Positions 1,419-12,610 of a stretch of DNA of 64,000 nucleotides are shown in pieces. Location: sequence record MZ868638.1; one strand, 5' to 3'. Each line of letters opens with the position of its first letter. Position 1 is the stretch's first letter. The stretch comes from Escherichia phage vB_EcoM-pEK20. A program made the translations under genes and the position numbers. Under the pieces are notes generated by a model. It did no database searches and was not told where the DNA came from. It saw nothing but the letters and a program-made list of their open reading frames with translations.

Positions 1419-1922
1419 ATGAGTCTTTATACCGAACTGAATAAAAAATCTGAAGAATCTGCTGAAACTATTTTTAAAAACGTGCAAAAGCGTATTTTAG
1501 AAAAGATGTATAACACTGCAGCTAAAGGTGAAAAATCTTGCCGGTTTCCGATGAGGTGTTCTTCTGATTTATGCGCAAATACTATTGAATGGCTGGAAAG
1601 TGAAGGTCTTACGGTAGAGAAAAACCCGGCGACTTCTATTGACAGCGAATCATATATTAGTATTTCTTGGGATAAATCAAGGGTAGAAGAGAAAGATGGT
1701 GATTGGGTTGTAGATGTTAAAACTTCTGATGGTGGACGTTCTGTTGAAGTTTCAGCTGTAGTTAAAGGTACCCACGAACAAAGGACTTGGGGTTGGGGTG
1801 GTGAAGAAAAAGAAATTGTTCTTAGTGTGATTGCCAGGTCAACCAGTAATAAAATTGCACAAAGCATCATTGACGCTGCAATTGCTGAAGCAGAAAAAAT
1901 TTGCAAAATTAAAAATAAATGA
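1419..1922 (+). CDS. hypothetical protein
   Basis: ATG ORF with gagg SD 9 nt upstream; no homolog recognised. Confidence 0.5.
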   Translation: MSLYTELNKKSEESAETIFKNVQKRILEKMYNTAAKGEKSCRFPMRCSSDLCANTIEWLESEGLTVEKNPATSIDSESYISISWDKSRVEEKDGDWVVDVKTSDGGRSVEVSAVVKGTHEQRTWGWGGEEKEIVLSVIARSTSNKIAQSIIDAAIAEAEKICKIKNK

Positions 1923-1951
1923 TGTACAAACGCCAAGGACGGTGTTACTAT
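1923..1951 (+). promoter_or_regulatory. early promoter
   Basis: -35 tgtaca, -10 tactat 1946-1951; the listed ORF start at 1919 lies inside this promoter. Confidence 0.45.
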
Positions 1952-1981
1952 AGACTTATCAACTACAGAGGAGTAAACAAA

Positions 1982-2146
1982 ATGACTACTTTAATTATTT
2001 GGTTTGACGAAAATGAAGAAACATACTGTGTGAACATTGGCGAAAGCCCAATGCCTGAATTTGAATCCTCAGATAAAAACTCTGTTGTATCTTGGGCTGA
2101 AGGTTATAAAGCAGCTAAAGGTGACGTTGAAATAATTTACATCTAA
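1982..2146 (+). CDS. hypothetical small protein
   Basis: internal ATG (M22 of ORF 1919..2146) preceded by SD gaggag; upstream part of listed ORF is promoter sequence. Confidence 0.45.
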   Translation: MTTLIIWFDENEETYCVNIGESPMPEFESSDKNSVVSWAEGYKAAKGDVEIIYI

Positions 2147-2164
2147 GTAAGTTTATGTTATAGT
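2135..2164 (+). promoter_or_regulatory. early promoter
   Basis: -35 atttac, -10 tatagt 2159-2164 within tgttatagtag motif shared by many promoters here. Confidence 0.5.
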
Positions 2165-2192
2165 AGTCCTATCAAATCAAGAGGAAAACAAA

Positions 2193-2420
2193 ATGGCTAA
2201 AGTTAGTATTGATGTCGTTGATTATGAATACACCGAAGAAGTTATTCGCAACCGACACCCTGAAGTTCGTATCGATTCAGTCCAAGATTCCAAGTTCTGG
2301 ACAACTGAGCTTAATCTGAGCGGTCCTTATGAAGTTGTTAAGAAGTTCATGGTTGAAGAATACTGCGAAGGCATGCACCCGGAAGACGCCGAGTTTTATG
2401 TCAATTTGATTAAAAAATAA
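2193..2420 (+). CDS. hypothetical protein
   Basis: ATG ORF, SD agagga upstream. Confidence 0.5.
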   Translation: MAKVSIDVVDYEYTEEVIRNRHPEVRIDSVQDSKFWTTELNLSGPYEVVKKFMVEEYCEGMHPEDAEFYVNLIKK

Positions 2421-2449
2421 TTTACAAACTCTTGAGAGCAGAGTATAAT
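2421..2449 (+). promoter_or_regulatory. early promoter inside repeated stem-loop cassette
   Basis: -35 tttaca 2421-2426, -10 tataat 2444-2449 flanked by inverted repeat gagagc/gctctc. Confidence 0.55.
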
Positions 2450-2468
2450 GCTCTCGTTGGATAATAAA
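2425..2468 (+). repeat. promoter cassette copy A (near-identical to 32539..32584)
   Basis: caaactcttgagagcagagtataatgctctc...ttggataataaa occurs twice in window. Confidence 0.8.
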
Positions 2469-2490
2469 CCACCAATTGAAAGGTAATAAT

Positions 2491-3084
2491 ATGAACACAC
2501 TGAAGAAACTTGTTGAATTCATCCGCACTAAACTGGGTACTGCTATGGCTAAAAATCTGACTGTCGAAGAACAGTATAACGCAGCTGCAGATAAGTTGAT
2601 TACCCAAATCAAAGAACTAAAAACGGCTTCTGTTAAATCTATTAATGAAGAAAAACGTATTCGCGAACTTGTTATTGAAAAGAATAAGCAAGCCGCTTCT
2701 AAGGAACGTGAAATTCGTAAGCTCCTGGCTGAAGGACAAGATGTTACCATGCATGCTAAGCTTGGTCTTCTGTATCGTCGAACTGCCGAACAACTTAATA
2801 CAAAAGCTGACGGGTATGCCGCTATGCGAATTGAAATTGCTCGTAAGGTTGTTGAACTTGACGATGCTCGTCAGAATCTGGCAATCAAACTCGAATACAT
2901 TCGTGAAACTCGAGCAGCTAATGCCCTTGGTATCTCTACGGCTGATGATGTAATTGAAATCGCTGCACTGACTAAGGTTGATATCGAAGACACTCTGACT
3001 CGTGTTGAAACGTTCAATGGTACTCCAGCTGGTGTCGAAACCACTTCTGCTGATGTACAAGAATATATTAACTCTTTGAAATAA
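2491..3084 (+). CDS. hypothetical protein (likely coiled-coil)
   Basis: ATG at M6 of listed TTG-start ORF; heptad-like charged sequence. Confidence 0.5.
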
Positions 3085-3092
3085 AATAATAC

Positions 3093-3114
3093 GGAGGACT
3101 CCGGTCCTCCTTTT
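3093..3114 (+). terminator. rho-independent terminator
   Basis: stem ggaggac 3093-3099 / gtcctcc 3104-3110, loop tccg, then tttt. Confidence 0.7.
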
Positions 3115-3133
3115 GGATAATAAAGGAGTTAAC

Positions 3134-3730
3134 ATGCGAAACCAAAATAATGATATTGACTCAATGTTCGAAGAGTTCCGAGATAAGGTAAATCCACCTA
3201 CGTCTTTAGTTGATTCATTACGATATGTTGCAACTGGACGTAAATGGTACTGGTCGTCTTCTTATGAGACAACTGAATATGCAAATAACCGAAAATCTTT
3301 ATTAGCCCCAGGTATTATGATTCATGATATCGGAGCTATTGCTAAACTAGTTGCAGACCATGATATTAGATTCACTGATTTCGTTGCTCCTACGTGGTCT
3401 GTTTGTTGTTTAAACACTGAATGGGACTATATCAGTGAACGTTCAGATGATTACATAGGCTTTAGAGACAAGCTTTTAAGGTCTAACATGTTTTATATTG
3501 ATACAGAAGTTCTGGTCAATAATAAAAAATACTACTTCACTTTAATCGTCGATTCTGAAACTATGTATGAAGGCAAGCCTTTGCTTAAAAGAGTTGATGC
3601 TTTAAGTGCTATTGATGCGCTTTATGAAACCATGGTTGTTAGTCCTAATTTCACTAACAATTTAATCCTTGAGCAATTTATTATGGAATGTAGAGAATAT
3701 GTCAAAGCCAACCCTATACATGCCAAGTAA
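3134..3730 (+). CDS. hypothetical protein
   Basis: ATG with SD aaagga; C-terminus carries EQFIMECR junction motif. Confidence 0.5.
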   Translation: MRNQNNDIDSMFEEFRDKVNPPTSLVDSLRYVATGRKWYWSSSYETTEYANNRKSLLAPGIMIHDIGAIAKLVADHDIRFTDFVAPTWSVCCLNTEWDYISERSDDYIGFRDKLLRSNMFYIDTEVLVNNKKYYFTLIVDSETMYEGKPLLKRVDALSAIDALYETMVVSPNFTNNLILEQFIMECREYVKANPIHAK

Positions 3731-4094
3731 GCCCTGGGCGTATGAATACAAGCGTAAATTAATCCCAAATGAAGTACTATTTGGCCCTATTTTAGCTTTA
3801 GCGTTTTTAATCTTTATGTTTATAGGAGCTGTTTTAGATTCCAATAAAGTTATATCGTCTGATGCAGCGTTTTCATTAATGTTCGTCGCACCACTTATTG
3901 TACCGTTTTTATTAATGCCTATTAATTGGGCAGGATATTGGCACCAAGGCCGTCATCACAGAGCCCGATTAAGAGAATGGAAAGTTCAGTGCGCAAAAGC
4001 CCAAGCTCAGTATGATGAAGCTGTTAAAAAGTATGAATATGAAGAAGCTATGGAATTCGTTAAGGAAATAAGATGCAAAAACCTCAACTCTTAA
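3699..4094 (+). CDS. small membrane protein (2 predicted TM segments)
   Basis: first in-frame ATG of listed TTG ORF; hydrophobic segments; C-terminal EFVKEIRC motif; start uncertain (3720 also possible). Confidence 0.4.
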   Translation: MSKPTLYMPSKPWAYEYKRKLIPNEVLFGPILALAFLIFMFIGAVLDSNKVISSDAAFSLMFVAPLIVPFLLMPINWAGYWHQGRHHRARLREWKVQCAKAQAQYDEAVKKYEYEEAMEFVKEIRCKNLNS

Positions 4095-4426: not shown

Positions 4427-4732
4427 ATGAGTAAGATTATTGAAATTAAAGTACCAGAGTTTAATGATGCCAAATCCGCTTCAGATGCAATTTATAAACT
4501 TCTGAATCAAGCTGAACGTATCGAAGAAGAAGCAACAAAGATCGCAGACCAATATGCCGTATCATTTTCTGTAGGTGATTATGGTAGTGGTCGTACTTAT
4601 TATCCTAAGGGTGAAATCGTATCCCAGTGGATGAAAGATGAAATTGAAAATAATGGTGGCGATGTTAAGCGTGAAGGTAATGGTTACATTATTACTGAAG
4701 GTGCTTGGGTTTCGTCTTCTGCGTTGTGCTAA
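4427..4732 (+). CDS. small protein, paralog family with C-terminal GxW[VI]SSSxxC (copy 1)
   Basis: ATG at M15 of listed GTG ORF; C-terminus GAWVSSSALC. Confidence 0.5.
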   Translation: MSKIIEIKVPEFNDAKSASDAIYKLLNQAERIEEEATKIADQYAVSFSVGDYGSGRTYYPKGEIVSQWMKDEIENNGGDVKREGNGYIITEGAWVSSSALC

Positions 4733-4741
4733 GGAATCATT

Positions 4742-5014
4742 ATGTCTAAAGAACAAACCGAACTGGCTGAAGCCGTAGCAAAAATCTATGCAGCTATTGA
4801 GGCTGCCAAAGAAATTGCTGATAAACAAAACACAACATTCGACTTGTATCCAGCTTATGGTATGGGTGGAACCTATCATTCACCGGGACAACTTAAAGCC
4901 GATCTTGAACGTTGTACAAAAAACGGCTATGCTGAATGGGCTGACGTTTACCAATACGACTACAATCTGAGCCTCGAAACTGGTGGTTGGATTGCGTCTT
5001 CTCACACTTGCTAA
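4742..5014 (+). CDS. small protein, paralog family (copy 2)
   Basis: ATG ORF; C-terminus GGWIASSHTC. Confidence 0.5.
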   Translation: MSKEQTELAEAVAKIYAAIEAAKEIADKQNTTFDLYPAYGMGGTYHSPGQLKADLERCTKNGYAEWADVYQYDYNLSLETGGWIASSHTC

Positions 5015-5023
5015 GGAAATCAT

Positions 5024-5221
5024 ATGTCTCGTGAATTAGATTGTGCTGTACGTACGGCAGTAGCTGCCCTAGAAAACCTGTTCCAAATTGCAACAGAAGA
5101 ACGCGAAGAAGTTACATTATGGATTGAAGATAACGCAGGTCTGAATCTCCAGAATGCAATCTCGGTATCAAATAATAGTATTACTGTTCAAGGCTGGGTA
5201 TCATCTAGTTATTCTTGCTAA
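5024..5221 (+). CDS. small protein, paralog family (copy 3)
   Basis: ATG ORF; C-terminus QGWVSSSYSC. Confidence 0.5.
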   Translation: MSRELDCAVRTAVAALENLFQIATEEREEVTLWIEDNAGLNLQNAISVSNNSITVQGWVSSSYSC

Positions 5222-8059: not shown

Positions 8060-8292
8060 GTATAGCAATTTACATTAAATCAGAATCATGTGATAGTTAT
8101 CTGTACACATACGATAAAGATGTGTCAGAAGAAAAAATCAAAGACGATCTTAATATGGACCTTGATTTGTTCAGTCCTATTGCAGATTACAAACTTGCGG
8201 TCTCTAATAGTGAAAGTCCATCTAAAGAAACGCGCATTGAAGAATTTATGTCCGAATTAATGGCCAAATCATGGGACCGAGATGATGAGTAA
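8056..8292 (+). CDS. hypothetical small acidic protein
   Basis: ATG at M6 of listed ORF, agga 9 nt upstream. Confidence 0.4.
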   Translation: MSIAIYIKSESCDSYLYTYDKDVSEEKIKDDLNMDLDLFSPIADYKLAVSNSESPSKETRIEEFMSELMAKSWDRDDE

Positions 8293-8740
8293 GAAAAATA
8301 AAGTGAAAGAACTATCAGCCGGTATTATTTTCCTTACCGAAAATAAAGAATTATTCATGGGTCGTGTAACTGGTTCTCGTCCTAAAGGTGCATTAGCTCA
8401 TCGGTGGGATATTCCTAAAGGCCGTGTCGAACCTGGCGAATCTCCTATTGAAGCCGCTATTCGTGAATGCGAAGAAGAAACTGGGTTTACACAATATGAT
8501 CCTGCCTTCCTGAAAGACCTAGGTGAACATCATTACTCAGACAATAAGAATATTCATCTGTTCCTATATACCATCCCTGTAGAGCACGAGCAATTCAGAA
8601 ACAGTGTTTGCAATTCCTATCATACATTCCCAGACGGACGTCAGATTCCTGAATTTGATGCATTCGCTTTAATTAAACCTTCTCAATGGGAATATGTAAT
8701 GGGCAAATCATTATATAAGGTGCTCACTACCCTCCTATAA
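8282..8740 (+). CDS. nudE: Nudix hydrolase (T4 NudE/e.1-like)
   Basis: Nudix box GRVEPGESPIEAAIRECEEETG; position immediately upstream of lysozyme as in T4. Confidence 0.75.
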   Translation: MMSKKNKVKELSAGIIFLTENKELFMGRVTGSRPKGALAHRWDIPKGRVEPGESPIEAAIRECEEETGFTQYDPAFLKDLGEHHYSDNKNIHLFLYTIPVEHEQFRNSVCNSYHTFPDGRQIPEFDAFALIKPSQWEYVMGKSLYKVLTTLL

Positions 8741-8774
8741 GTAATAAATACCTCCTATAAACGTGGGAGGTATT

Positions 8775-9263
8775 ATGAATATATTTGAAATGCTTCGTAA
8801 TGACGAAGGTCTTAGACTGACTTTATACAAAGACACTGAAGGCTTTTGGACGATTGGCATAGGCCATTTAGTAACAAAGAACCCGTCTTTAGCCGTAGCT
8901 AAAGCTGAACTTGACAGAATGATCGGACGTAAATGCAACGGTACAATTACCCTTGATGAGGCTGAAAAGTTATTTAATGAAGACGTTGATAAAGCTGTTC
9001 GCGGAATCTTGGGTAATGCTAAACTTAAACCGGTATATGATTCTTTAGATGCAGTTCGTCGATGTGCATTGGTCAATATGGTCTTCCAAATGGGTGTAGC
9101 AGGCGTCGCTGGTTTTACTAATTCTCTTCGTATGCTTCAACAGAAACGTTGGGACGAAGCGGCAGTAAATCTAGCCCAATCTAAATGGTATCGTCAGACA
9201 CCTAATCGCGCGAAACGCGTAATCTCAACATTTAAAACAGGAACTTGGAAAGCGTATATATGA
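8775..9263 (+). CDS. e: endolysin, T4 lysozyme
   Basis: MNIFEMLR...GHLLTK...[27 protein letters not shown] closely matches T4 gpe; SD gggagg. Confidence 0.95.
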
Positions 9264-9541
9264 AAACATATAGTGAATTTTTATCAGAATCTATTCTTAA
9301 CGAAGCTACTGACACATTTGCAACTAAGCTAGGTGCAGCTTTGGTTGAAGCTGAAAGTTTATTAGCACGTATTTCTGAACTTGCTAGTAAGATAGATACT
9401 CGCAAATTTGAGCGCACCAGTGATATCGTTAAGCTTGAAGCCTTGTTGCGTATGTGCGATAAACCGGAAGAAATCGCTAAGAACGGCTCGCTGATGAAAC
9501 AACGTCTTGAAAAATATATTTCAGGCGCTTCAGAAAAATAG
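9260..9541 (+). CDS. internal protein (capsid-targeting sequence [10 protein letters not shown]), IPII/IPIII-like
   Basis: T4 IP leader consensus at N-terminus; ATGA overlap with e stop; position between e and denV. Confidence 0.6.
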
Positions 9542-9542
9542 T

Positions 9543-9572
9543 GTTTACTTCCTCCAAGGGTTTTGATACTAT
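9543..9572 (+). promoter_or_regulatory. early promoter upstream of denV
   Basis: -35 gtttac 9543-9548, -10 tactat 9567-9572. Confidence 0.55.
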
Positions 9573-9599
9573 ACATTCATCAACTACTTGGAGGAAATT

Positions 9600-10013
9600 A
9601 TGACTCGTATCAATTTAACACTTGTTTCTGAACTGGCCGACCAACATCTTATGGCTGAGTATCGTGAATTACCACGCGTATTTGGTGCAGTCCGTAAACA
9701 TGTTCAAAACGGTAAACGTGTAAAGGATTTTAAAATCTCTCCAACATTTATCTTAGGCACAGGTCACGTAACATTCTTTTACGACAAACTCGAATTTTTA
9801 CGTTTACGCCAAATCGAGCTAATCGCTGAATGCTTGAAACGTGGTTTCAAAATCAAGGACACGACTGTCCAGGATATTTCCGACATCCCTGCCGAATTTC
9901 GTAATAATTATGTCCCGTCCGAAGCGTCCATTGCGATAAGTCAAGCACGCTTAGATGAAAAAATTGCTCAACGTCCGACTTGGTACAAATACTATGGTAA
10001 ATCAATTTACTAA
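9600..10013 (+). CDS. denV: endonuclease V, pyrimidine-dimer DNA glycosylase
   Basis: [28 protein letters not shown]... matches T4 DenV. Confidence 0.95.
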
Positions 10014-10019
10014 GGAAAA

Positions 10020-10136
10020 ATGAAAATGTATCAAGAATTTATCATTGAAGCAGAGGCCAAAGGTCCTAAAGTAGATGTTGACGATATTGGATATGATTTT
10101 AACAACTTCGGAATTATTTCTGGCGGTAAAGCTTAA
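10020..10136 (+). CDS. mini internal-protein-like ORF (38 aa) with capsid-targeting leader MKMYQEFIIE
   Basis: SD aagga then ATG 10020; not in ORF track because <60 aa. Confidence 0.35.
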   Translation: MKMYQEFIIEAEAKGPKVDVDDIGYDFNNFGIISGGKA

Positions 10137-10139
10137 ACG

Positions 10140-10169
10140 GTTTACGCTTAAGTATTAATATGGTATAAT
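10140..10169 (+). promoter_or_regulatory. early promoter
   Basis: -35 gtttac 10140-10145, extended -10 tggtataat, tataat 10164-10169. Confidence 0.65.
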
Positions 10170-10199
10170 TGCTCTATCAAAACAAACAAGGAAACAAAA

Positions 10200-10514
10200 A
10201 TGAAAACCTATAAAGAATTTATTGCAGAATCCGCCAACCAACGCGTTGAAGGTGGTTATATTTGGATTGAACAAGTTGAGCCACCGAGCCGCACTTCTAC
10301 AGGTAAATGGAAAATTACTGTTGATGGTCCTGGTGGTAAACGTAGGACTCTTAAAGAAATTAATGGGTACTATGAAGAAGCTCTTTCGGATGCAGGAACT
10401 TACATGATGCAAATCATGATTAAAAACCCTGAAAACCGTTTTGCAGCTAAAGTCTTCCGCCGTATTGGTAATAAACTTTATGATGCATATTCTAAAAACT
10501 TCCCTAAAGAATAA
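10200..10514 (+). CDS. internal protein (leader MKTYKEFIAE)
   Basis: T4 IP leader consensus; ~100 aa basic protein. Confidence 0.6.
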   Translation: MKTYKEFIAESANQRVEGGYIWIEQVEPPSRTSTGKWKITVDGPGGKRRTLKEINGYYEEALSDAGTYMMQIMIKNPENRFAAKVFRRIGNKLYDAYSKNFPKE

Positions 10515-10540
10515 CATAAATTAAAACAATAGGAAAAAAA

Positions 10541-10843
10541 ATGAAAACATATCAAGAATTTATTACTGAAGCGCGAGTGAGTGCAGGTAAATTAGAAGCC
10601 GCTATAAATAAAAAGGCCCATTCATTTCATGATTTGTCCGATAAAGACCGTAAGAAACTTGTAAGCCTTTATATTGACAAAGAGCGTATTCTCGCTCTTC
10701 CTGGCGCTAATGAAGGTAAACAGGCCAAGCCTTTGAATGCCGTCGAAAAGAAAATTGATAACTTTGCTTCTAAATTCGGTATGTCTATGGATGACCTTCA
10801 GCAAGCGGCTATCGAAGCAGCTAAAGTAATTAAAGGTAAATAA
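10541..10843 (+). CDS. internal protein (leader MKTYQEFITE)
   Basis: T4 IP leader consensus; SD aggaaa. Confidence 0.6.
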   Translation: MKTYQEFITEARVSAGKLEAAINKKAHSFHDLSDKDRKKLVSLYIDKERILALPGANEGKQAKPLNAVEKKIDNFASKFGMSMDDLQQAAIEAAKVIKGK

Positions 10844-10845
10844 CA

Positions 10846-10874
10846 GTTTACTTTCTCCTAGAATTGTGATAGTA
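10846..10874 (+). promoter_or_regulatory. early promoter (diverged copy of the denV promoter)
   Basis: -35 gtttac 10846-10851, -10 tagtat 10869-10874. Confidence 0.5.
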
Positions 10875-10900
10875 TATTCATAATTACTTGGATGGGTAAA

Positions 10901-10999
10901 ATGACTTATATTAATTTGACTTTAGTATCTAAATTTGCTGATCAACATTTAATCGCCGAATACTGTGAATTGCCACGTGTTTTTTGGTATAATTCGTAA
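10901..10999 (+). pseudogene. denV 5' fragment (frameshifted, truncated second copy)
   Basis: [28 protein letters not shown] then stop; deleting one T restores GIIRKHV matching DenV GAVRKHV. Confidence 0.6.
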
Positions 11000-11172
11000 A
11001 CACGTGGCAAAAATATTTACATTCAAATAAAATGGGAACAACCTGGACCTCATGATTCTATGAGGGATTCCCGCCAACCTGTAATAAGGTCGAGCCCAAG
11101 TGCGGTAATGGGTAAATACAGAAATGGACAATTCATGCGCCACGGAACGGCCCCAACCTTAAGAGAAACTAA

Positions 11173-11712
11173 ATGAGAACATTTTTAACCGGACCTTATC
11201 TATCCCTGATGAATGCTTTTACACACCATTCTGATGCTAGAGTAGAAGAAATTTGTAAGAACGGTTATGCCCCACCATTTGAAGACGTACTCAAGCAGTA
11301 CTGTACACTTCGTTTAGACGGTGGCAGACAATCCGGTAAATCAATTGCTGTGACTAATTTTGCTGCTAATTGGTTGTATGATGGCGGAACGGTTATTGTT
11401 CTTTCTAATACTTCAGCTTATGCTAAAATTTCTGCTGGCAACATTGAAAAAGAATTTTCTCGTTATTCTAGCGACGATATTCGATTCCGTTTATTTACTG
11501 ATTCTGTTCGTAGTTTTATTGGTAATGAAGGACATAAATTCCGTGGATTAACACTTTCTCGTATTCTGTACATAATTGACGAGCCTATTAAAGCTCCTGA
11601 TATGGATAAGATTTACGACATCCATATTAAAACAGTCCAACACTGTTGCAAAAGCAAATATTGCATCGGCGGTAATGCTCGTCCTCAATTTTTTGTGATT
11701 GGAATGCAATGA
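11173..11712 (+). CDS. P-loop NTPase, function unknown
   Basis: Walker A DGGRQSGKS and Walker B-like LYIIDEP. Confidence 0.5.
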   Translation: MRTFLTGPYLSLMNAFTHHSDARVEEICKNGYAPPFEDVLKQYCTLRLDGGRQSGKSIAVTNFAANWLYDGGTVIVLSNTSAYAKISAGNIEKEFSRYSSDDIRFRLFTDSVRSFIGNEGHKFRGLTLSRILYIIDEPIKAPDMDKIYDIHIKTVQHCCKSKYCIGGNARPQFFVIGMQ

Positions 11713-12017
11713 TGACCGCTATTGAAGTTTTTGAGTACTGTTATAACAGCCCAGTATGCAATAAAAGGGCCCTTGTAGAAAATTATGAGATTTACCATTT
11801 TAAACCTAAACGATACCGTTTGACTAAAGGTCCGTTCGCAGGGCAGCAGGTTCTTTGTACTGCTCCTAATGCACGGTTGATGACTAGTATTCCACATTTC
11901 AAAATGGAATTTATTGATGGGCCATTTAAAGGATTAATCACTCAAAGTTTAATGGCGTTTAATTCCGACCCATTTTTGATTAAAGAAAAAACTTGGATAA
12001 ATTTATTTTCTAATTGA
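11709..12017 (+). CDS. hypothetical protein
   Basis: ATG overlapping upstream stop (ATGATGA). Confidence 0.45.
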   Translation: MMTAIEVFEYCYNSPVCNKRALVENYEIYHFKPKRYRLTKGPFAGQQVLCTAPNARLMTSIPHFKMEFIDGPFKGLITQSLMAFNSDPFLIKEKTWINLFSN

Positions 12018-12023
12018 GGTTAT

Positions 12024-12386
12024 ATGAAAGCATATCAAATTCTTGAAGGTGAACATAAAGGCACTATTTATTTTGAAGACGGTACTCAAGCCCGGATTAT
12101 TGTCTCTAAGACTTTTAAAGAAGACACTATTGTAGACCCGGAAATTTTCTACGGTTTGAATGCTCGTGAAATTGAAATTGAACATCAACCTAAAGTTAAA
12201 ATTGAAGGTGGTCAACACCTGAACGTTAACGTTCTGCGTCGCGAAACTCTGGAAGATGCAGTTAAGCATCCAGAAAAATATCCGCAGCTGACCATCCGTG
12301 TATCCGGTTATGCAGTTCGCTTTAACTCTCTGACTCCGGAACAGCAGCGCGACGTTATCGCTCGTACCTTTACCGAGAGTCTATAA
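12024..12386 (+). CDS. grcA: autonomous glycyl-radical cofactor GrcA/YfiD-like protein
   Basis: C-terminal ~60 aa ...[59 protein letters not shown] matches E. coli GrcA as I recall it; 3' half GC-rich. Confidence 0.8.
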
Positions 12387-12610
12387 TGGCTAAATTGATT
12401 ATAGAAGGGTCTGAAGATGTTTTAAAATGTTTTGCCGCCTGGTTTAGTTGCCCAGGCGAGCAATCATTCATTGAAGCATTTAGAACGGGTGATATTACTG
12501 GAAACTATCCGACAACTGATATCACTGTACGTGGATATGGTATTAATGAGCCTATCCAATTGGTCGAATATGACCTTGCCACCGATGAGGAAATTCCTTA
12601 TGTCGATTGA
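12386..12610 (+). CDS. hypothetical protein
   Basis: ATG overlapping grcA stop (TAATG). Confidence 0.4.
   Translation: MAKLIIEGSEDVLKCFAAWFSCPGEQSFIEAFRTGDITGNYPTTDITVRGYGINEPIQLVEYDLATDEEIPYVD

Follow-up and report, generated by a model that had tools for sequence, protein, structure and literature searches.

The region between the lysozyme gene e and vs.8 raises a simple question in Escherichia phage vB_EcoM-pEK20 (sequence record MZ868638.1): why should the beginning of denV occur in it twice, once as part of an intact gene and once as a fragment? The stretch of DNA that was analyzed, referred to here as the window, comprises 64,000 nucleotides of a T4-like phage of the RB69 group, and its positions 8700-11800, which match 861 phage records, are 98.3% identical to Escherichia phage vB_EcoM_JS09 (Mosigvirus). 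An initial annotation, made from the sequence alone, had described 10846-10999 as a diverged second copy of the denV promoter and 5′ coding region, now a pseudogene, and had read it as the scar of a recombination that moved or replaced denV relative to the internal-protein (ip) genes, with reference to the T4 order e, ipIII, ipII, denV. That order is correct (T4 has e, ipIII, ipII, denV, vs.8), and the fragment occupies exactly the position of denV in T4, after ipII and before vs.8. The locus is arranged as follows:

8282-8740: nudE
8763-9263: e (lysozyme)
9245-9541: internal-protein-like gene, 98 aa
9543-10013: early promoter and intact denV, consisting of the two parts below
9543-9599, + strand: early-type promoter and 5′UTR of the resident denV (GTTTAC 9543-9548, TACTAT 9567-9572)
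9600-10013, + strand: intact denV (copy A), RB69-type allele, 137 aa plus stop
10020-10136: ip-like ORF, 38 aa
10141-10514: second promoter and ip10-like gene
10541-10843, + strand: ipII-like internal protein gene, 100 aa, annotated IpII in JS09; probably imported together with the denV remnant
10846-11026: denV copy B element, the remnant under study
11027-11172, + strand: conserved non-coding spacer between denV and vs.8, near-identical in T4, JE01 and fPS-65
11173-11712, + strand: vs.8, annotated as such in JS09 and RB69; the first gene downstream of the remnant

The functional denV in this phage is copy A, a separate gene of RB69 type at 9600-10013. Its product matches the Pfam family PF03013 (Pyr_excise) with 52.5 bits against a cut-off of 23 and is annotated DenV in JS09 and RB69, and the first 104 nt of the gene are 99% identical to RB69. 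The preceding promoter and 5′UTR are 97-100% identical to those of RB69, phi25-307 and TH58, and contain a 10-bp inverted repeat (TTCCTCCAAG / CTTGGAGGAA) through which the region between the promoter hexamers pairs with the Shine-Dalgarno sequence.

When 10846-11020 was compared by blastn with the whole window, the sole non-self match was 9543-9703 (73.0% over 163 columns, E=1e-21), the next best match reaching E=0.027. The pair was also aligned with MAFFT, and the remnant agrees with copy A at 72% of some 58 nt upstream of the ATG (promoter, 5′UTR and Shine-Dalgarno sequence) and at 71% of the coding part; similarity thus reaches well past the promoter. Several elements of the initial annotation are confirmed by these comparisons, namely the presence of a second early promoter with a denV 5′ fragment, the by-eye estimate of about 70% identity to the intact gene, and the 32 codons aligned with the DenV N-terminus, which run from the ATG at 10901 in frame to the TAA at 10997-10999.

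The fragment could be imagined as a duplication of the resident promoter and 5′ end within this very genome, later diverged to about 70%, and the two copies are indeed in direct orientation, 1.3 kb apart, with promoter, 5′UTR architecture and 35 codons in common. The closest relatives of the remnant lie elsewhere. In the phage collection, a large set of denV genes from Tequatrovirus agrees with its promoter and first 110 coding nucleotides at 91-93%, and the remnant is 86-88% identical upstream and 89-91% in the coding part to the alleles of fPS-65, LH2, ESh36 and SH-2 (61% and 79%, respectively, to T4 denV); for genes of the fPS-65/LH2/ESh36 type the identity comes to 89-92%. Positions 10505-11011 of the window are 94.9% identical to JE01, VIPECOOM01 and TB004, and JE01 and VIPECOOM01 (Tequatrovirus) have the order e-ipIII-ipII-promoter-denV(417 bp)-spacer-vs.8 with a single denV; adjacency of ipII and denV is also found in Dhakavirus (MX01, ABTNLS3) and Marfavirus (PWKp16). 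Duplication is thus contradicted by an identity of 89-95% to the alleles of other phages as against only 71-73% to the resident gene, by the denV 3′ end and Tequatrovirus-type spacer that the remnant possesses, and by the intact versions at the same position in JE01, VIPECOOM01 and T4. It was rejected on this allele comparison, convergence being implausible over 500 nt, and we accord it next to no probability. The initial annotation was accordingly right that the duplication is not recent and that a recombination scar is tied to where denV lies with respect to the internal-protein genes (the remnant sits at the T4 denV site). It was mistaken in regarding the remnant as a diverged copy of the resident gene, for it is a different denV allele, 94.9% identical to that of JE01 and VIPECOOM01 together with ipII.

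Alignments with JE01, fPS-65, LH2 and T4 resolve the anatomy of the remnant:

10846-10900, + strand: early-type promoter and stem-loop of copy B (GTTTAC 10846-10851, 18-nt spacer, TGA followed by TAGTAT 10870-10875)
10901-11005, + strand: 5′ fragment of denV copy B, codons 1-35, from alignments and codon comparison
10980-10985, + strand: run of six T, a +1 frameshift that yields the stop at 10997-10999
11006-11011, + strand: GGCAAA, the junction microhomology of a 292-bp deletion
11006-11026, + strand: 3′ fragment of denV copy B, the last seven codons (GKNIYI plus stop), out of frame

A 200-nt query from the remnant spans 491 nt in Tequatrovirus denV records, and therefore about 291 nt are absent from the window. 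In the JE01 reference the missing block measures 292 bp and is bounded on both sides by the GGCAAA repeat, which occurs as acatgtGGCAAAtgg and tattacGGCAAAaat; when 200,000 deletions were simulated in this sequence, a junction microhomology of at least 6 had a chance of 0.002 per junction. What had been taken for a 5′ fragment ending at 10999 continues in homology to codon 35 (11005) and is followed by the last 21 nt of the gene, so that codons 1-35 run directly into the final seven (GGC AAA AAT ATT TAC ATT plus stop) and these into a spacer such as lies 3′ of denV in T4 and JE01, about 97 codons being missing. As 292 cannot be divided by three, the deletion throws the 3′ piece out of frame, and the former stop TAA reads CAA at 11024-11026, as it does in every remnant examined. 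The one-base insertion and stop of the initial annotation are real insofar as the T run at 10980-10985 is concerned, whereas the main lesion is the 292-bp internal deletion. Among the type-1 carriers aligned for this run (the window, AV110, JS09 and ESCO47), the window and AV110 have six T, while JS09 and ESCO47, like every full-length allele, have five; the extra T is a later, secondary lesion and the 292-bp deletion the inactivating event. The Shine-Dalgarno sequence is degraded from GGAG to GGAT (GGATGGG at 10890-10896), a change that created an upstream in-frame ATG and for that reason gave rise to the open reading frame listed as 10892-10999 (35 aa). The remnant cannot encode the enzyme.

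The surviving codons bear the marks of relaxed constraint. Codons 1-35 of the remnant carry five non-synonymous changes (R3Y, E11K, L12F, R22C, V31I) and two synonymous ones; over the same codons nine full-length alleles encode an identical peptide, with no non-synonymous and six synonymous polymorphic codons (Fisher p=0.021 for the remnant against the nine intact alleles, on few sites). The remnant of TB004 shows four non-synonymous and three synonymous changes. We take the conserved N-terminal residues of T4 endonuclease V to be Thr2, Arg3, Arg22, Glu23 and Arg26, with R3 and R22 presumably contacting DNA. The remnant keeps T2, E23 and R26 but has R3 replaced by Y and R22 by C, residues that are retained in 9/9 full-length alleles. 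The window ORF 10901-10996 has no match to PF03013, translation of the remnant in the JS09 frame scores 18.8 bits (below the cut-off of 23), and no uninterrupted frame of about 137-138 codons is present; the remnant is not a DenV enzyme. Homology combined with lesions (the 292-bp out-of-frame deletion, the frameshift and the lost stop codon), together with relaxed constraint and an ORF that is not conserved in close relatives, identifies it as a pseudogene, in agreement with the initial annotation.

It might nevertheless be argued that selection maintains the remnant as a short leader ORF, as a peptide from the DenV N-terminus or as a 5′ leader that regulates vs.8, given that a promoter and a stem-loop pairing with the Shine-Dalgarno sequence are retained, that the ORF is annotated in JS09 and ESCO47, and that the remnant persists in at least five phages. 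We consider such a function very improbable. The length of the ORF varies among near-identical phages (32 codons in the window, 45 in JS09, and a different frame history in AV110) with the state of the T run, the Shine-Dalgarno sequence is mutated, substitutions are mostly non-synonymous, and the Pfam scores fall short in either frame. Moreover, in most related genomes nothing of the coding remnant survives and the promoter stands alone; in mogra and phi25-307 the coding remnant is gone outright.

How a foreign denV allele came to stand in an RB69-like genome is indicated by the mosaic structure of the locus. The window is 98.6% identical to RB69 at 8201-10070, 96.7% at 10063-10571 and 96.1% at 11074-12600, vs.8 being RB69-like (96% from 11074 onward). 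RB69 lacks a counterpart of 10571-11074 and has a different ip gene there (ORF123c), and against JE01, VIPECOOM01 and TB004 identity in the flanks reaches only 71-84%. The segment from about 10571 to about 11137, which includes the body of ipII, the promoter, denV copy B and most of the spacer, is of Tequatrovirus type (e.g., JE01/VIPECOOM01), and the genome on both sides is RB69-like (Mosigvirus), with its own intact copy A further upstream in the locus. The boundaries of the segment fall in two short conserved sequences, the start of an ip gene and the denV-vs.8 spacer:

10531-10571, + strand: left crossover zone, the ribosome-binding site and conserved first ~10 codons (MKTYQEFI, capsid-targeting signal) of the ipII-like gene; a three-way alignment is RB69-like upstream of it and JE01-like downstream
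about 11134-11151: right crossover zone, in the denV-vs.8 spacer, placed from informative sites in the junction alignment

The conserved stretches that hold the exchange points are about 40 bp and about 18 bp long, and homology patches of <50 bp are given as the requirement for T4 recombination (Singer et al., 1982, as quoted in PMC2839356). In the left zone the window is identical to neither RB69 nor JE01, and both phages are stand-ins for the true parents of the mosaic; we infer the direction of transfer from the grouping of alleles only.

Genus labels proved poor guides to ancestry of the e-to-vs.8 locus. W143, which is filed under Tequatrovirus, has a denV promoter and first 104 coding nucleotides 98-99% identical to the RB69-type copy of the window, its whole nudE-e-ip98-denV block being 84.7% identical, and the RefSeq record of HP3 has a 'Rosemountvirus' taxonomy line and yet a T4-like locus.

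Taken together, these comparisons of sequence favor, with a probability of roughly 0.8, the reading that the element is a decayed second denV (copy B), which would have been imported together with ipII by recombination and have decayed as redundant, its promoter being retained. Between co-infecting T-even phages, homologous recombination would have swapped one internal-protein cassette for ipII, and denV would have been carried along because the nearest homology on the right-hand side lies downstream of denV. Being redundant with copy A, the imported copy would then have been free to decay, by slipped-strand or microhomology-mediated deletion and by point mutation. Copy B lost 292 bp between GGCAAA repeats, and substitutions, a degraded Shine-Dalgarno sequence, the lost stop and, in the window and AV110, the extra T were added. 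The promoter and stem-loop may survive either in still transcribing vs.8 and the downstream early genes, or as a repeated linker for the recombination of cassettes.

Related phages display other stages of this decay, which were told apart by their distinct junctions:

Type 1: deletion of 292 bp at GGCAAA; the window, JS09, AV110, TU01 and ESCO47
Type 2: deletion of 347 bp at GACTCG; W143, SH-2, TH58, N2 and about a dozen more
Type 3: deletion of 187 bp at AATGG; TB004
Type 4: deletion of 507 bp at GGTAAA; mogra and phi25-307, inspected directly

All four junctions are at direct repeats of 5-6 bp. In type 4 the entire gene is gone, together with two-thirds of the spacer, so that only the promoter remains; about 200 further records that match the promoter part alone of the junction probe would fit type 4, a type assigned directly in mogra and phi25-307. 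Within type 1, the remnant of JS09 is 99.5% identical to that of the window and the remnant of ESCO47 about 94%, both with the same GGCAAA junction. The loss of the stop codon to CAA, common to all four deletion types, suggests that they descend from a full-length but already unconstrained ancestor. Copy B was deleted in all of the inspected genomes that have an upstream denV (JS09, W143, SH-2, N2, TH58, mogra and phi25-307), and within the inspected set the genomes with an intact copy B lack any other denV. The middle 276 nt of copy B, used as a query, gave 595 records, with 10 extra 'places' beyond those inspected. With a chimeric 1990-nt probe no genome was found to hold two full-length copies (best coverage 88%), and the probe detected no record in which an RB69-type denV-A block lies less than about 1.5 kb from the middle of copy B; a redundant two-copy intermediate would therefore be our inference.

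This leads to a competing order of events, in which the module arrived already dead: the 292-bp deletion would have occurred in a donor with copy B alone, denV being dispensable, and the block would then have recombined into a Mosigvirus with copy A, so that the lineage never had two working copies. ESCO47 lends this some weight. Its identical type-1 junction lies in a different context (e, a 133-aa ORF, ipIII, ipII, remnant, vs.8), its remnant is less decayed (E11 kept, a GGAGGG Shine-Dalgarno sequence and five T), and there is no intact denV between e and vs.8, where, as in TB004, the deleted remnant is alone. The same junction in two contexts shows that recombination has moved the remnant since the deletion occurred, and copy B can evidently be lost, or carried without a second copy. 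On the other hand, a deleted copy B accompanies an upstream denV in nearly all inspected genomes and an intact copy B accompanies none, the shared TAA-to-CAA change points to a full-length, unconstrained ancestor, and in ESCO47 and TB004 copy A may have been lost secondarily through recombination. We regard arrival in the dead state as possible but doubtful, and prefer import of a full-length copy B followed by its decay.

Two observations on these genomes may be recorded here. ESCO47 and TB004, in which the loci extend over 474-2800 and 1560-3620, respectively (locus coordinates), may be without pyrimidine-dimer glycosylase altogether. In the window, the 38-aa ip-like ORF at 10020-10136 is RB69ORF125c (86 aa; full length also in phi25-307) minus 144 bp in frame, with the deletion junction at a CCTAAA direct repeat; the deletion is also present in JS09 and represents a second short-repeat deletion within the same locus as the denV remnant.

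The part of copy B that most genomes retain is its promoter, which follows the T4-type early pattern, with GTTTAC at -35, a spacer of ~17-18 nt and a TG-extended TAnnnT at -10; the homologous site in fPS-65 is annotated as 'predicted early promoter'. A generic sigma-70 scan (threshold 9 of 12) listed neither denV promoter. By eye the copy B promoter has 8 of 12 consensus matches plus the TG extension, the T4-early consensus likewise being judged by eye. Its 43-nt core (10846-10888) is identical in JE01, mogra and phi25-307, and in comparison with JE01 there are 0/43 differences in this core and 12/116 in the adjacent Shine-Dalgarno sequence and coding remnant (p=0.037, on few sites). The promoter alone is retained in many genomes, and it probably still drives vs.8, its presumed target. 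JE01, SH-2 and N2 each have two copies of the 43-nt core, one behind e and one behind ipII, and recombination between such copies would explain phages with the order e-promoter-denV-vs.8 and no ip genes (HP3, fPS-65 and LH2).

The promoter regions of denV also fold into hairpins, with energies of -19.1 kcal/mol for copy A, -16.9 for the remnant and -20.7 for JE01, and with z-scores against shuffled sequences of -3.2 (copy A), -3.35 (remnant), -4.7 (JE01) and -3.6 (T4). In all four the stretch between the promoter hexamers pairs with the Shine-Dalgarno sequence, the arms differing in sequence by allele type; RNAalifold found no consensus structure for eight denV promoter regions because the arms are out of register between allele types. 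Pairing of the Shine-Dalgarno sequence is kept in every denV allele type (window 9543-9599; T4 locus 3350-3412, minus strand). With the pairing partner between the promoter hexamers, the ribosome-binding site is predicted to be sequestered in read-through transcripts and to stay free in those that start at the gene's own promoter.

Between the window, T4, JE01 and fPS-65 the spacer that follows the remnant hardly differs, despite flanking genes that are only 71-84% identical. Within it lie a hairpin (CCTCAT 11048-11053 / ATGAGG 11060-11065) and a core (11074-11112) whose conservation extends across genera; folded as a whole, the spacer is no better than shuffled sequence (z=0.25). An Rfam scan of 9000-12000 at E<=1 returned nothing, so that the conserved 11027-11172 is neither an RNA already known nor part of a known intron. 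An origin of the remnant from a homing endonuclease or intron was rejected on this result and the allele comparison. In the T4 annotation the spacer makes up the first 40 codons of a vs.8 of 219 aa, and in the window a separate 38-aa ORF (11060-11176) ends at the start of vs.8; so strongly conserved a spacer may be coding, regulatory or a linker for recombination. Its last ~60 nt (GGTAAATAC..ATGGACAATTCATG..) occur twice in phi25-307 (locus coordinates 4455-4500 and 4985-5030) and TH58 (2890-2935 and 3400-3445), before an extra ip gene and before vs.8, and this end of the spacer seems to be a portable 5′ leader or linker for cassettes.

Phages of the SH-2 and N2 type have two copies of the promoter with the denV 5′ end, at about 90% identity to each other. 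In SH-2, the intact denV beside e (locus coordinates 2556-2972) and the downstream remnant (3623-3893) have in common the private variants AATAAAG and GGTACAAG, which are not seen in other phages and suggest gene conversion between the copies in one genome; they hint at ongoing exchange between the repeats.

The remnant is, in our view, an ordinary scar in a locus already known to be hypervariable, a well-resolved example and not a new kind of element, and its value lies mainly in annotation and illustration. For annotation, the 'endonuclease V' entries JS09_060 and ESCO47_00047 should be marked as pseudogenes. As an illustration, it belongs to an unusually complete natural series that leads from an intact gene through three different internal deletions to a bare promoter, and in which the passenger gene of a swapped anti-restriction cassette is removed by short-repeat deletions while the promoter is kept. 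That the exchange points lie in conserved stretches fits the old proposal that sequences flanking the ip genes guide the exchange of T-even cassettes between genera.

Comparison with known systems begins with T4 denV itself, the gene of endonuclease V, a pyrimidine-dimer DNA glycosylase (PF03013). The remnant stands at its position, both ends align with DenV of T4/JE01 type, and the spacer downstream is nearly identical to that of T4; it differs in the missing codons (about 97), the broken frame, the lost stop and the replacement of R3 and R22. Direct counterparts are JS09_060 (YP_009037383.1) and ESCO47_00047, which are the same remnant with the same GGCAAA junction under the name of endonuclease V, the ORF of the window being shortened further by the extra T. 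Our literature search, which did not take in Repoila et al. (1994), found no paper that describes the short DenV ORF of JS09 or ESCO47 as a deletion derivative, and a paper on RegB and denV (PMC1702504) deals with the T4 denV Shine-Dalgarno sequence only and has nothing on remnants.

Deletions between short direct repeats in phage T4 were reportedly described by Singer and Westlye in 1988. Mosig et al. (1998), as quoted in PMC2839356, is a further source for such deletions in T4. The likeness consists in the 5-6-bp repeats at all four copy B junctions and the CCTAAA repeat in the neighboring ip gene; the present deletions differ in being natural variants fixed in wild phages rather than laboratory mutants, and in having no GGGC motif.

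A second parallel is offered by the PeSL cassettes of RB49 and phi1, in which repeats of a promoter and stem-loop flank small accessory genes (Arbiol et al., 2010; PMC2839356). That paper presents the PeSL unit as a homology patch for insertion, deletion and replacement, and the promoter/stem-loop elements of T-even IP loci as its analogues. The denV promoter regions likewise combine a promoter with a significant hairpin in an intergenic position, and all that were tested fold; they are analogues and not homologues, with a T4-early promoter and an AT-richer stem that lacks the GGGG/CCCC motif, a difference that Arbiol et al. likewise state for the T-even IP elements. By analogy, the promoter, stem-loop and denV 5′ fragment could together be a maintained recombination or regulatory linker, the T-even counterpart of PeSL. 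In that event anti-restriction (Ip) cassettes would be actively excised, captured and gene-converted through the direct repeats that flank ip genes; the retained stretch of denV would add length to the patch of homology, and the promoter would maintain expression of the vs genes. We think this unlikely, and the record of shuffling is mixed: the 43-nt core is repeated in JE01, SH-2 and N2, and the crossovers of the window lie in the ip 5′ signal and the spacer, not in the promoter.

Import of copy B as a passenger, the reading we prefer, relates the remnant to the IP loci themselves. The T-even IP loci are characterized as hypervariable (Repoila, Tetart, Bouet and Krisch, 1994, EMBO J 13:4181, via PMC2839356 and PMC12373910), and both of these later papers have the ip genes vary in number and identity behind a common conserved 5′ signal sequence, with early-promoter/stem-loop elements thought to mediate their shuffling. 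The genes encode injected inhibitors of GmrSD-type restriction enzymes (PMC12373910). The remnant lies in this same locus, from e to denV, and the crossover zones of the window fall in just such conserved sequences; what sets the window apart is that its swapped cassette carried a non-ip neighbor along and left graded deletion remnants.
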